Source of the DNA: a virus
Lineage: Duplodnaviria > Heunggongvirae > Uroviricota > Caudoviricetes
Strand: one strand, 5' to 3'
Virus record (IMG/VR): IMGVR_UViG_2718218139_000010
Location: 1 to 35,239 of that record
DNA length: 35,239 nt
This document shows positions 30,001 through 35,239 of this stretch, one piece after another. Numbering within the stretch: position 1 is the first letter of the stretch; every line of letters starts with the position of its first letter. A program made the position numbers.

Positions 30001-33000
30001 ATAACGAAATACCGGCTGGATAATCCACCAGCCATATTAACGCCATACCCGTTGATTAAGCATGCCAGCAATGGCAGGGGTTCGTACAACCTTAAAATAG
30101 TTATGAGGTTTATCAATGAGCACCGATAAAGAAGAATTTGCGCTATATTGCGAAGCTAAAAATGACAAAGTCAGAAAACGCCTTGGGATTAAAGGGGGTT
30201 TTTACTGGACTACAGCAAAAAAATTATCTGTTGCCATCTCACGGTGCGTTGTTGCAATGGACGAGGCAGGCTACGACGCTGATGATTTCAAAAAACCCGT
30301 CCGCGTCCATTTCCCCGTTGTGAATGACCTTCCACCGGAAGGCGTGTTTGATACTGAATTCTGCAACCGCTATGAAAAAGGCGGGGAAGATGGCATCACA
30401 ATGATATTTATAGCGCCTTCCCCCTCAGTTCAGGACAAACCAGCCAGCACTGACAATACCAACGTCAATGGCGAAGACATGGCTGAGATTGAGGATAATA
30501 TGCTCCTGCCGATTTCCGGTCAGGAACTGCCCATTCGCTGGCTTGCGCAACATGACAGCGAAAAACCGGTAACGCACGTTTCACGGGAAGAACTTCAGGC
30601 ATTACATATCGCACGAGCTGAAGAACTGCCGGCTGTTACTGCCCTGGCTATTTCCCACAACACAAAGCTGCTCGACCCGCTGGAGATTCGCGACCTTCAC
30701 AAACTGGTACGCGACACTGACAAAGTTTTCCCTAATCCCGTTAATTCCAGTCTGGGGTTCATGACTGCTTTTTTCAAAGCATACCTGGACACTGACTATA
30801 CCGATCGAGGTCTGCTGACAAAAGAGTGGATGAAAGGAAATCGTGTTTCTCGCATCACCCGCACGGCTTCCGGTGCAAATGCCGGTGGCGGAAATAAAAC
30901 CGATCGTAATCCTGACTTAGTACACACCCTCGATACTCTGGATGTGGAGGCTGCAGCAGCCACGCTTCCGATGGATTTTAATATTTATGAAATTCCCGGG
31001 AGCGTTTATCGTCGCGCAAAAGAAATCGTCCTGAAAAAAGAAAGTCCGTTCAGGGAATGGTCCGCAGCACTTCGCGCAACCCCTGGTATCCTGGACTATT
31101 CCCGCGCAGCTATTTTTGCACTTATCCGAAGCGCCCACCCTGAGTTTTATCACTACCCGGGACGCCTTCAGGGGTATATCAATGCCAACCTGACAGAAAC
31201 TGATCACGAGAATCCCACAGCTGAAACGCTCATGGCTGCCCGGCATACACCGGAAAAAGATATCCTGGAAGAAATTAACGGCGGACTGGCTGCTGAGTGC
31301 AAAACAGAAGAAGAAAAAAATGATGAAGAAAACCCGCAACCATCTGGCGCAATGGCAGATGAACAGGCAACGGCTGAAACAATGGCAGCGGATACAGTTG
31401 AACATCATCAGGACCCGCAGCCGCAGGATGACAAGTCACAGGTAAAAGTTACCGCTGAAGAAGTAAATAAAATTATGCAGGCAGCCAATATCAGCCAGCC
31501 TGACGCCGATAAGTTGCTTGCTGCATCACGTGGTGAATTTGTTGCAGGGATTAGCGATCCGAATGATCCGAAATGGGTGAAGGGGATTGAAACCCGCGAT
31601 TCTGTGAACCAGAACCAGCAAGAAACGGAACAGAACGACCAGAAAGCGGAACAAAACAGCCCAAATACGCAACAAAACGAGCCAGAAACGAAACAACCTG
31701 AACCAGTAGTGCAACAGGAACCGGAAAAGATCTGCACCGCTTGCGGTCAGAGCGGTGGCGGCAACTGCCCTGATTGTAGTGCGGTGATGGGCGACGCAAC
31801 ATACCAGGAAACATTCGATGACAAGAACCAGGTTGAAGTTCAGGAAGACGATTCGGAGAAAATGGAAGGCGCTGAACATCCACACAAGGAGAATGCTGGC
31901 AGCGCTCAGGACCACGCCAGCGATAGTGAAACTGGCGAGACGGCAGATCCCTTAATTACGGTGAACGGTCATCACGTTATCACATCCACCAGCAGGACGT
32001 GTGACCATCTAATGATCGACCTTGAAACCATGGGAAAAAATCCTGATGCCCCGATTATCTCAATAGGTGCAATATTTTTCGATCCGCAAACCGGAGATAT
32101 GGGACCGGAATTTAGTAAGACTATCGATCTGGAAACTGCTGGCGGAGTCATTGATCGAAACACCATTAAATGGTGGCTGAAGCAATCACGTGAAGCGCAG
32201 TCTGCCATTATGACTGATGAAATCCCGTTAGATGATGCACTGTTACAATTGCGGGAATTTATCGACGAAAACTCCGGTGAATTTTTTGTTAGGGTCTGGG
32301 GAAATGGGGCCAACTTCGACAACACGATTTTGCGCCGTTCATACGAACGGCAGGGGATCCCATGCCCATGGCGTTACTACAACGATCGCGATGTACGCAC
32401 AATCGTTGAGCTGGGGAAAGCCATAGACTTCGATGCCAGAACGGCTATTCCATTCGAAGGTGAGCGCCATAATGCACTTGATGACGCCCGTTACCAGGCA
32501 AAATACGTTTCAGCAATCTGGCAAAAACTGATCCCGAATCAGGCTGATTTTTAATGTTCAACCGTCGCCAGTTGTCGTTGGTATTCTGCAACTGGCGCGT
32601 TCCGGAGTGATAGCCATGAGCGAACAGTACCTGATAACGCTCGACGAGTGGAAACCAAAACGGTTCAGTCTCCCAATAACAAACACTACCCTGGTGAAAT
32701 ACGGAAAACTAGGATACATCGTTCCAAGGCCACAAAAAATTCGTGGGCGTTGGCTGATAGATCGCCGAGCAGTATTTGTTGGACCTGGTGAAACGGGAAT
32801 TGCGCCGGAAATTCTGAGGTAGCCTGAGTTTAACGGACACTCCTTCCTGAAATAGAATGGCATCAGAAGGAGCTAATAATGAGCAGAAAAACCCAACGTT
32901 ACTCTAAAGAGTTCAAAGCCGAAGCTGTCAGAACGGTTCTTGAAAATCAACTTTCGATCAGTGAAGGCGCTTCCCGATTATCTCTTCCTGAAGGCACTTT

Positions 33001-35239
33001 AGGACAATGGGTTACCGCCGCCAGAAAAGGGCTCGGTACTCCTGGTTCCCGCACGGTGGCTGAACTGGAATCTGAAATTCTGCAACTGCGTAAGGCGTTA
33101 AATGAAGCTCGCCTTGAGCGAGATATATTAAAAAAAGCAACAGCGTATTTTGCACAGGAGTCGCTGAAAAATACGCGTTAATCGAACAATGGCGACAACA
33201 ATTTCCCATTGAAGCGATGTGTCAGGTATTTGGTGTATCCAGGAGCGGTTATTACAACTGGGTACAGCATGAACCCTCAGACAGAAAACAAAGTGATGAG
33301 CGGCTAAAACTGGAGATTAAGGTGGCACATATCCGCACTCGCGAAACATATGGAACCCGGCGGCTCCAGACGGAGCTGGCAGAGAATGGCATCATCGTTG
33401 GTCGTGACCGACTGGCACGTCTTCGTAAGGAGCTAAGGCTACGCTGTAAGCAGAAACGCAAGTTCAGAGCGACTACGAACTCGAACCACAATCTGCCAGT
33501 TGCGCCAAATCTGCTGAACCAGACGTTCGCTCCTACAGCACCAAATCAGGTCTGGGTGGCGGACCTGACGTATGTTGCCACACAGGAGGGATGGTTGTAC
33601 CTCGCTGGCATCAAAGATGTTTATACGTGCGAAATTGTCGGCTACGCCATGGGAGAGCGCATGACAAAAGAGCTGACAGGTAAAGCCCTGTTTATGGCGC
33701 TCAGGAGCCAGCGCCCACCTGCCGGGCTAATCCACCACTCTGATCGAGGTTCACAGTACTGCGCATACGATTACCGGGTCATACAGGAGCAGTTTGGTCT
33801 GAAAACATCAATGTCGCGTAAAGGTAACTGTTACGACAACGCTCCGATGGAAAGCTTCTGGGGAACGCTGAAAAATGAGAGCCTGAGCCACTATCGTTTT
33901 AATAACCGGGATGAAGCCATCTCAGTAATACGGGAATACATTGAGATTTTCTACAATCGTCAGCGTCGTCACTCTCGTCTGGGGAATATCTCCCCGGCAG
34001 CCTTCAGGGAAAAATATCATCAGATGGCTGCTTAAAAAAAGAACAAATGGTAGTGTCCGCTATTGCCAGTACACCTCATTCATACTGGCGATGATGATGC
34101 ACTGAAGGAGATTTTAACTCATGTCACCGAGGCCACGAAAAAACAGCACTGACGTAGCCGGACTTTACGAAAAGTTTGATCGCAGAACTGGCAGAGTTTA
34201 CTACCAGTATAAAAACCCTGTGACTGGAAAATTTCACGGACTCGGAACAGACAAAGGCAAGGCAGAAAAAATCGCTTCCACAGCCAATCAGCGAATAGCT
34301 GCAGCAGAAGCTGAATATTTCATGCGCAAAATTGATGAAAGTCCGTCAGCGACAAAACGTCGGGGTATCAGATTAAAGGCATGGGTTGATCGATATCTGA
34401 AAATACAGGATACGCGACTGAAAAATGGAGATATTGCAGCTACAACTCACAAAGAAAAAACTCGAATGGCTGCATACCTGGTTTCCCGTCTGGGAAACCA
34501 CCCATTGAAAGAACTGGAAGTAAGAGACTTTGCATTAATACTGGATGAGTGGCTGGATAAAGACATGGTCAGCACAGCGAGAGTAAATCGCGGATTATGG
34601 GTTGATATTTATAAAGAAGCACAACATGCAGGGGAAGTTCCTCCTGGATGGAATCCTCCGGAGGCTACCCGTAAACCGATCCCTAAAGTAACCAGAGCCA
34701 GGCTCCCCCTGGAAGACTGGCAAAAAATTTACAACGCAACGCCTGAAAAACACTTTATCCGTAACGCAATGCTTCTTGCGATTGTTACTGGTCAGCGCCG
34801 TGATGACATTTGCCACATGCGTTTTTCAGATGTGTGGAACGAACACTTGCATATCACCCAGGGAAAAACCGGAATGCGTCTGGCGTTACCGCTTACACTA
34901 CGCTGTGATGCCATTGGGATAACGTTAAAAGAAGTTATTGATGGGTGCCGAGACAGAATATTAAGTCCATATCTAATCCATAGTCGGCACCAGAAACAAC
35001 CAAAGCCGATGAGTAAAGACAACCTGAGCGACTACTTTGCCAAAGCACGGGATCTGGCTGGGATAATTCCACCAGCAGGAAAAACTCCGCCAACATTTCA
35101 TGAACAACGCTCTCTATCAGAACGGCTGTACCGTGCACAGGGTATCGATACAAAAACATTACTAGGACATAAAGTCCAGGCAACCACCGATCGCTATAAC
35201 GATACTCGAGGTCAGGAATGGGTTAAGTTGGTTATTTGA

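Follow-up and report, generated by a model that had tools for sequence, protein, structure and literature searches.

An IS600 insertion in the excisionase gene of a degraded lambdoid prophage of EHEC O145:H25

Analysis of the window (the whole stretch of DNA under study, 35,239 bp) identified it as CFSAN004176_P04, a published prophage of EHEC O145:H25, with which it agrees in size, potC site and cargo. The effector genes nleC and a SopA-like EspX homologue lie at positions 1-3613, and no tRNA genes were found within the window. Two copies of an insertion sequence split the endolysin gene and the excisionase gene xis, respectively, and the features in and around them are as follows:

12993-13340, minus strand: endolysin 3' fragment left by IS600 copy 1
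13341-14604, plus strand: IS600 copy 1, flanked by a GAC duplication (13338-13340 and 14605-14607) and inserted after codon 62 of the endolysin gene, which is on the minus strand
14605-14793, minus strand: endolysin 5' fragment, 63 codons including the duplicated GTC, with a stop supplied by the IS end
14605-32814, unstranded: interval bracketed by the two copies, with genes for holin, SASA esterase, terB, Q, rusA, DUF968, ParD/ParE, replication, YdaS/YdaT, an HTH repressor, PaaA2/ParE, dicB and exo, and the 5' part of xis
32616-32814, plus strand: xis 5' part, codons 1-66 and the first base of codon 67; the ORF stops at 32822 within the IS
32812-32814, unstranded: left copy of the TTC target-site duplication flanking IS600 copy 2
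32815-34078, plus strand: IS600 copy 2, 1264 bp, with ends TGAGGTAGCC... and ...ACACCTCA, 100% identical to copy 1
32879-33181, plus strand: IS600 orfA, 100 aa; HTH_Tnp_1, Pfam PF01527, E=1.5e-20
33130-33136, plus strand: A AAA AAA slippery heptamer for a -1 programmed frameshift giving OrfAB, 385 aa
33217-34035, plus strand: IS600 orfB, DDE transposase core, ATG-initiated, 272 aa; Pfam rve PF00665, E=3.2e-26
34079-34081, unstranded: right copy of the TTC duplication
34082-34152, plus strand: orphaned xis 3' remnant, codons 67-89 and stop, overlapping the int start by 32 nt
34121-35239, plus strand: int, apparently intact, 372 aa; lambda-type arm-binding domain PF09003 and tyrosine recombinase PF00589

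The gene calls and Pfam matches of the bracketed interval derive from loci in this lineage; their gene coordinates and those of the window correspond one-to-one.

The element at the 3' end of xis, described as IS600-like in the original prediction, was identified as IS600 of the IS3 family by its length, its ends, its two-frame ORFs with an A-rich slip site, its 3-bp duplication and its near-identity to named elements. Alignment of copy 2 with the elements that RefSeq names 'IS3-like element IS600 family transposase' in three genomes revealed 1, 1 and 2 mismatches over 1264 bp, and a 'programmed frameshift' is annotated at matching IS coordinates in RefSeq. The reading frame of orfB stays open between 33136 and 34035, translation of the OrfAB fusion gave no stop, and orfB also matched rve_2, rve_3 and HTH_21 (PF13683, PF13333 and PF13276) alongside PF00665. 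The terminal inverted repeats are imperfect (TG...CA), being complementary at six of the first six end positions and at about 21 of the first 40. A published table for the source strain gives IS600 as 1264 bp in 53 copies. Compared with the IS600 reference, the size, the ends, orfA/orfB and the 3-bp duplication are the same and only the insertion site is new. IS600 belongs to the IS3 group of the IS3 family, was described first from Shigella and has an entry in ISfinder; IS3-family elements transpose by copy-out/paste-in, via a circular intermediate. The event is best explained as a simple IS600 insertion, presumably by copy-out/paste-in, into codon 67 of xis in a lambdoid prophage remnant.

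The insertion breaks xis after the first base of codon 67 and the product now ends ...PEI-LR-stop, with 23 native codons lost and two IS-encoded codons (Leu-Arg) in their place. The original prediction was right that the tail is replaced and near in its count (about 24 codons); it placed the insertion correctly in xis, though the start it gave for the gene, 32607, is an upstream GTG and the real ATG is at 32616. In silico removal of positions 32815-34081 yielded an 89-aa ORF ending at 34152 and overlapping the int ATG (34121) by 32 nt; an overlap with the int start had been foreseen, and ATCC 25922 has the same 32-nt overlap. The restored protein and WP_000003742.1, the annotated excisionase of E. 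coli ATCC 25922, share 100% identity; residues 1-66 of the truncated protein are identical to it as well. The Pfam Exc domain (PF07825) matched residues 7-58, all of which are kept after truncation, with marginal scores of 24.1 bits for the truncated and 23.2 bits for the restored form against a cut-off of 23. The BLASTP match to lambda Xis was weak (E=0.008, about 29% identity over 66 residues), and a sequence search against PDB chains with the restored Xis returned chance matches only and no solved Xis structure.

The protein resembles lambda Xis in its small size, in a gene lying just upstream of and overlapping int, in the Exc match and in having a C-terminal tail past the domain, but the tail here has 31 residues as against 18 and is acidic and helical where that of lambda is basic. 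The final 18 residues of lambda Xis form a disordered tail, which at site X1 points toward the Int N-terminal domain bound at P2, a geometry that fits Xis-Int cooperativity (PMC4880445). The insertion in our prophage keeps the DNA-binding part of Xis (residues 1-66) and drops a 23-residue C-terminal tail. Since the tail of lambda Xis underlies cooperative Int recruitment, the truncated protein would, by analogy, still bind att DNA and yet not promote excision. As regards int, the identical Int protein adjoins an intact xis in another genome. The insertion adds 1267 bp between int and all sequence upstream, and transcripts started at the phage early promoters would have to cross IS600 to reach int; a promoter able to drive int was searched for at the IS600 right end and none was found.

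Removal of copy 1 in silico likewise restored an intact ORF, of 177 aa, with a match to Phage_lysozyme (PF00959, E=3.3e-24). The truncated form of the endolysin seemed at first to be present in other prophages, as if the gene were an insertion hot spot; this idea was rejected, since the contig ends concerned are assembly breaks at a branch point, and some such contigs run on into an uninterrupted endolysin. The IS600 of O121 Stx2a phages is not the same event, being at another site and flanked by a CTC duplication.

Copies 1 and 2 are 100% identical across 1264 bp, have the same orientation and are the sole IS600 matches in the window. The intervening sequence (14605-32814) measures 18,210 bp, in agreement with the spacing of about 18 kb first proposed, and the start-to-start distance is 19,474 bp. 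As was also proposed, a loss of 19.5 kb could plausibly arise from such identical direct repeats: by RecA-dependent recombination, 19,474 bp would be deleted and a single IS would remain between GAC and TTC. The deletion variants that were to be looked for in related strains were not found. The predicted product (1 kb left of copy 1, IS600 and the xis 3' end with int) occurred at a coverage of at least 80% in none of 5,426 RefSeq complete E. coli genomes, which is a weak test since none of them carries IS600 in xis. Exact-protein look-ups with Int, Exo and the truncated forms of Xis and endolysin revealed no deletion variant either, but could not have told such variants apart in drafts, whose contigs end at the IS. 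A related potC prophage of strain EH031 does carry an IS600-associated deletion, but at different sites. In a study of IS600 copies in a degraded lambdoid prophage, flanking IS600 repeats reportedly drive both amplification and deletion of the bracketed segment. The setting of IS600 copies within a degraded lambdoid prophage is shared with our case, while here neither amplification nor deletion of the segment was observed and toxin genes are absent from it, the ParE-type toxin-antitoxin modules aside. The two ParE-type modules inside the bracket might disfavour loss of the segment.

Analysis of the chromosomal flanks revealed that the two ends of the element are of different types. The left junction is a serU (tRNA-Ser) attachment remnant beside yodB, with the flank order yodB-zinT-msrQP-hiuH-hprRS-hchA; homology to K-12 stops after 62 nt of the serU 3' end, 603 nt left of window base 1, and an intact tRNA is absent there. 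The right junction is a potB/potC-type site with the flank potC-potD-cobB. The serU and potC loci are 0.86 Mb apart in K-12, no potB/potC-type att sequence was found within 3 kb of the left end, and the two ends do not form a cognate attL/attR pair. These two flanks, together with the published order of prophage integration sites, suggest that the element is a hybrid of two prophages, one integrated at serU and one at potB/potC, formed by an inversion of about 0.86 Mb round the terminus; such inversions are well known in EHEC. Since the left end is serU and the right end potC, the integrase lacks an att partner at the opposite end, with or without a working Xis.

The morphogenetic genes are also incomplete. 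Portal, capsid and tail genes are absent, the packaging, head and tail set is incomplete, and terL contains an in-frame stop. Leftward of the terminase genes there remain just an IS66-family element, part of a nin region, an N-terminal tail-fibre fragment of 111 aa and the effector genes; the IS66-family element is at a non-syntenic rearrangement joint and has no 8-bp target duplication. The related prophage of ATCC 25922, in contrast, lies between potB and potC and has the full structural gene set. Because of the hybrid ends and the lack of morphogenesis genes, the element would neither excise as a unit nor form particles even with intact xis and endolysin. The original prediction held that disruption of these two genes locks the prophage in and leaves it unable to lyse; both genes are indeed split, but the view that these lesions are what locks it in is not supported, given the att mismatch, the missing head and tail genes, the stop in terL and the IS66-family element at a rearrangement joint.

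The insertion in xis is not an assembly artefact. With more than 50 IS600 copies in the genome and draft assemblies that break at IS600, one could suppose that a multi-copy repeat had been misplaced by the assembler, but there is next to no chance of this: four megabase-scale assemblies of the lineage read through both xis junctions with a perfect TTC duplication, and the published assemblies were verified against optical maps. The draft contigs of other isolates break at, or a few bases from, both junctions, at least 11 more exo-bearing contigs stopping in xis, short of the IS junction by a few bases (these ends are approximate), and about 18 int-bearing contigs starting in the roughly 140 bp that precede int, at the right end of the IS or slightly beyond it. 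The presence of two identical, directly oriented copies around a discrete segment could also point to a composite transposon in which both copies and the 18 kb between them were inserted, or are mobile, as one unit. This reading is contradicted because each copy bears its own matching duplication, as had been proposed for two independent insertions: GAC flanks copy 1, TTC flanks copy 2 (32812-32814 and 34079-34081), and the outer flanks, GAC left of copy 1 and TTC right of copy 2, are therefore unlike. Removal of each IS singly gives an intact gene, the gene order over both sites is the normal lambdoid synteny seen in ATCC 25922, and a composite transposon is accordingly very improbable.

A further question is whether selection favoured the insertions in xis and the endolysin for immobilising and disarming the prophage, and so fixing its type III effectors (nleC and the SopA-like EspX homologue) in the chromosome. 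Both insertions are in genes for prophage escape or host killing, the effector genes are present at 1-3613, and immobilisation of mobile elements by IS has been raised as a possibility in published papers. IS629 is stated to immobilise prophages in EHEC O157 (Ooka et al. 2009, Genome Res, as cited in PMC5567499 and PMC7437938). On that cited account the two cases are alike in that an IS3-family element piles up in EHEC prophage genes and disables lytic or excision functions; they differ in that the element here is IS600 and not IS629, that iee does not work in this lineage and that here an inter-prophage inversion grounds the prophage as well. The O145:H25 lineage carries 53-54 copies of IS600, and the IS-excision enhancer gene iee is itself broken by IS600 (PMC5567499); mobile elements house most IS elements of the lineage. 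With this copy number and a disrupted iee, build-up of IS600 in non-essential prophage DNA is expected without special selection, and, as the copies cluster in mobile elements, a 35-kb prophage with two of them is no surprise; even a uniform model gives 0.36 copies per 35 kb and a probability of two or more of about 5%. The inversion and the loss of structural genes ground the element independently, and the effector genes belong to the serU-phage half while xis and int belong to the other, all of which makes selection for immobilisation unlikely. There is a still slimmer chance that the truncated Xis acts as a dominant-negative directionality factor on the att arm sites of this Int family and, with the two ParE-type modules, actively keeps the hybrid, along with its immunity region, stable in the chromosome of O145:H25.

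We therefore consider it very probable that the locus records a simple IS600 insertion in xis of a hybrid, structurally incomplete remnant, redundant with the other lesions. The two IS600 lesions are redundant and probably late events in an already grounded element, although the insertion in xis might yet predate the other lesions. IS600 in xis is an already known kind of event, real but ordinary, and as one more among the more than 50 IS600 insertions of a published EHEC O145:H25 genome it has little import beyond annotation. Its use is that xis and the endolysin gene can now be annotated correctly as pseudogenes. The prophage designated 'P04, potC' is a non-excisable hybrid remnant and should not be handled as an inducible phage, and its serU/potC hybrid nature points to a terminus-spanning inversion that is absent from the genome papers.

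Analysis of the window revealed exactly two matches to the insertion element, at 13341-14604 (copy 1, in the endolysin gene) and 32815-34078 (copy 2, in the excisionase gene xis); both were 1264 bp long, 100% identical and in the same orientation. The element has imperfect inverted repeats at its 5'-TG...CA-3' termini. An A AAA AAA heptamer was found in the orfA frame (33130-33136, copy 2), and reading on from there in the -1 frame meets no stop before that of orfB and yields an OrfAB of 385 aa. Elements of 1264 bp in three RefSeq genomes, labelled 'IS3-like element IS600 family transposase, programmed frameshift', differed from those of the window by 1-2 nt. 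The element is IS600, of the IS3 family, all testable defining features being present. The coding regions and target duplications are as follows.

orfA, 100 aa, Pfam HTH_Tnp_1
orfB, 272 aa, Pfam rve, rve_2, rve_3 and HTH_21
13338-13340 and 14605-14607, target duplication GAC of copy 1
32812-32814 and 34079-34081, target duplication TTC of copy 2

The original prediction of a second IS600-like copy in the same orientation, inserted separately with its own TTC duplication and bracketing about 18 kb, was borne out: the copies are separated by 18,210 bp (14605-32814), and each has one matched pair, GAC or TTC.

Copy 2 interrupts xis (start ATG 32616) between the first and second bases of codon 67, and the interrupted product ends ...APEI-LR-stop with the stop at 32822. 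Its placement inside xis had been correctly foreseen, but the start given at 32607 is an in-frame GTG upstream of the ATG; likewise the 3' end is displaced, but by 23 codons and not 24. In silico removal of 32815-34081 restored an 89-aa xis ORF with its end at 34152 and a 32-nt overlap with the start of the integrase gene int (34121), so that the predicted overlap, and not its absence, was obtained. The restored Xis was 100% identical to WP_000003742.1, the 'excisionase' of E. coli ATCC 25922, in which the excisionase gene and int likewise overlap by 32 nt. Removal of copy 1 together with one GAC gave a 177-aa minus-strand ORF with a Phage_lysozyme match.

In truncated and restored Xis alike, Pfam Exc matches residues 7-58, so the DNA-binding domain is kept and the tail alone is lost. 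In lambda Xis the last 18 residues form a disordered tail, which at site X1 points toward the P2-bound Int N-terminal domain and fits the known Xis-Int cooperativity (PMC4880445). By analogy, truncated Xis should still bind DNA but not recruit Int; identity to lambda Xis is 29% (E=0.008), a weak analogy at sequence level, and a search of solved structures with the Xis sequence gave nothing beyond chance matches. The int gene is intact (372 aa), and an identical protein adjoins an intact xis in another genome. Copy 2 now separates int from every upstream phage promoter, and a search for an outward promoter at the end of the IS next to int gave none.

Both junctions of copy 2 were read through in four megabase-scale assemblies. 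In other isolates, draft contigs with an identical exonuclease gene (exo) stop in xis a few bases short of the IS junction, while contigs with an identical int begin at one of two places, 5 nt past the junction or within the final 99 nt of IS600, which TTC follows. An assembly artefact in xis is excluded, as several independent assemblies agree, and a composite transposon made up of both copies and the DNA between them is equally excluded, being contradicted by the duplication pattern and by the normal synteny. None of the RefSeq complete E. coli genomes carried xis::IS600, and in the best RefSeq complete-genome matches the exo-xis-int module was uninterrupted at 96% identity. At the other insertion, many draft assemblies (L008-L015) break at, or at most 2 nt from, endolysin codon 63, other prophage contexts included, and some of these contigs run on into an uninterrupted endolysin gene. 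An insertion hot spot in the endolysin gene was considered and rejected; the breaks are assembly-graph branch points among near-identical endolysin genes, one with IS600.

A small number of NCBI assemblies encode the truncated Xis protein, among them CP014670.1, which is EHEC O145:H25 strain CFSAN004177 (PMC5567499). The published prophage CFSAN004176_P04 (35,239 bp, insertion site potC, cargo terB, an espX homologue and nleC; PMC5567499, Table S2) agrees exactly with the window in length and content. The two strains carry 53 and 54 copies of IS600, most IS elements sit in prophages and islands, and the IS-excision enhancer gene iee is itself disrupted by IS600 (PMC5567499). In a paper on another O145:H25 isolate IS600 again predominated, and IS elements were proposed to immobilise mobile elements; neither paper specifically mentions the xis insertion. 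Under a uniform model the published copy number gives an expectation of 0.36 IS600 per 35-kb prophage and a probability of about 5% for two or more, and since the copies cluster in mobile elements the true expectation is higher. At such an IS load, a 35-kb prophage with two of them is unremarkable. To read the insertions as adaptive immobilisation of the prophage is conceivable but unlikely, and is unnecessary in view of the IS load and the independent grounding of the element. Copy 2 adds one to the many copies of a familiar IS, the published genome being noted for its IS600 expansion, and is of a kind already known.

Two identical direct repeats of 1264 bp are well suited to homologous recombination; an exchange between them would remove 19,474 bp and leave one IS between GAC and TTC. 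The proposal that the copies could mediate deletion holds as regards the substrate, but no deletion variant was found in the assemblies examined. All megabase-scale assemblies of the lineage have both copies with matched duplications and none is a deletion variant, a kind of variant that draft assemblies cannot resolve; a synthetic recombinant had no match with at least 80% coverage in 5,426 complete genomes (xis::IS600 being absent from complete RefSeq E. coli). A related potC prophage, that of E. coli EH031 (NZ_AP027162.1), carries identical Xis and Int. Its IS600 (2501-3764 of the EH031 record L025) has non-matching flanks, CTT and AAT, and joins nin-region genes to an N-terminally truncated exonuclease gene, the entire immunity and replication region being absent. 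Deletions associated with IS600 are thereby shown to occur in this family of prophages.

Two toxin-antitoxin modules lie inside the bracket, and loss of such ParE-type modules could, speculatively, be counter-selected.

21457-22019, ParD/ParE module
27645-28123, PaaA2/ParE module
27216-28123, block of HTH repressor, PaaA2 and ParE
26425-27106, adjoining YdaS/YdaT

The repressor-PaaA2-ParE arrangement is similar to that of PaaR2-PaaA2-ParE2, a system in the immunity region of O157 cryptic prophages. On either side of the block is a 41-nt inverted repeat (27139-27179 and 28178-28218, 80% complementary), each arm palindromic in itself around AAAAACTGT...ACAGTTTTT; the arms look like a pair of immunity-region operators, left and right.

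Other lesions and cargo were identified in the remainder of the window.

1-987, 1241-3613 and 3875-4252, minus strand, effector cargo region
4496-4831, tail-fibre N-terminal fragment, 111 aa
4886-5588 (versus 19983-21320), partial second copy of a 92-aa gene and the N-terminal 140 codons of DUF968
5804-8335, IS66-family element, ORFs of 141, 116 and 537 aa, ends GTAAGCG...
8466-10127, minus strand, terL (large terminase), in which one in-frame stop separates a 334-aa ATPase ORF from a 204-aa nuclease ORF

The cargo, of type III effectors, encodes NleC (Peptidase_M85, E=8e-113), the 'espX homologue', a 790-aa pentapeptide-repeat/SopA-like HECT-type ligase, and a 125-aa ORF where related strains encode a 196-aa NleG. 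The IS66-family element has non-matching flanks (CTTTCGCA versus TGATCACC), lacks the 8-bp duplication expected of simple insertion and separates the terL 3' end from the second, partial nin-region copy (4923-5222 is 91% identical to 20656-20955); the site probably marks a joint made by recombination or deletion, and not a simple insertion. The partial copy directly abuts the tail-fibre fragment, after which come the effector genes. Such an arrangement points to an internal deletion in the serU-phage half, reaching from the nin region to the tail-fibre gene. Genes for portal, capsid and tail are all missing from the window.

The chromosome to the left carries yodB, zinT, msrQ, msrP, hiuH, hprR, hprS and hchA, and that to the right potC, potD, cobB, nagK and lolEDC. 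In K-12 the position of yodB/serU is 2.043 Mb and that of potB/potC 1.184 Mb, 0.86 Mb apart. On the left the sequence matches K-12 (98.7% over 1530 bp) up to and including the 62 3'-terminal nt of serU; the match stops 603 nt left of window base 1, where prophage DNA starts.

9336-9397 of the left chromosome flank (L029, reverse complement), serU junction
11120-11290 of the right-flank record (L017), potB/potC-type junction

The left junction contains no intact tRNA and is the distal attachment junction left by a phage that integrates at serU; a search of the left end for an att sequence of potB/potC type found none. The related prophage of ATCC 25922, with the same Xis and an exo-xis-int module 96% identical to the window's, sits between potB and potC with a full terminase, head and tail gene set. 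The window's element is unable to excise as a unit or to form particles, regardless of the state of xis and endolysin. Disruption of both genes had been correctly reported, but the locking-in attributed to them is overtaken by larger lesions, which could not be seen because one att junction falls outside the window. The endolysin gene is indeed split, but to say that the prophage cannot lyse goes too far, as any other lambdoid prophage of the genome could in principle supply endolysin.

A serU-type left end and a potB/potC-type right end from loci 0.86 Mb apart suggest an inversion between the serU and potC prophages, which would produce two hybrid prophages. In CFSAN004176 the integration sites run yciE, ynfE, yecE, [P04], yccA, ybhB on one side and yegL, serU (P12), ~13 kb, icd (P13) on the other (PMC5567499), an order that fits an inversion of ~0.86 Mb. 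The published assembly pipeline aligned contigs to optical maps for detecting mis-assemblies and inversions, and the O145:H25 genome papers do not mention this inversion. Of all these features only the serU/potC hybrid structure of the prophage is mildly new, and it would imply a terminus-spanning inversion.
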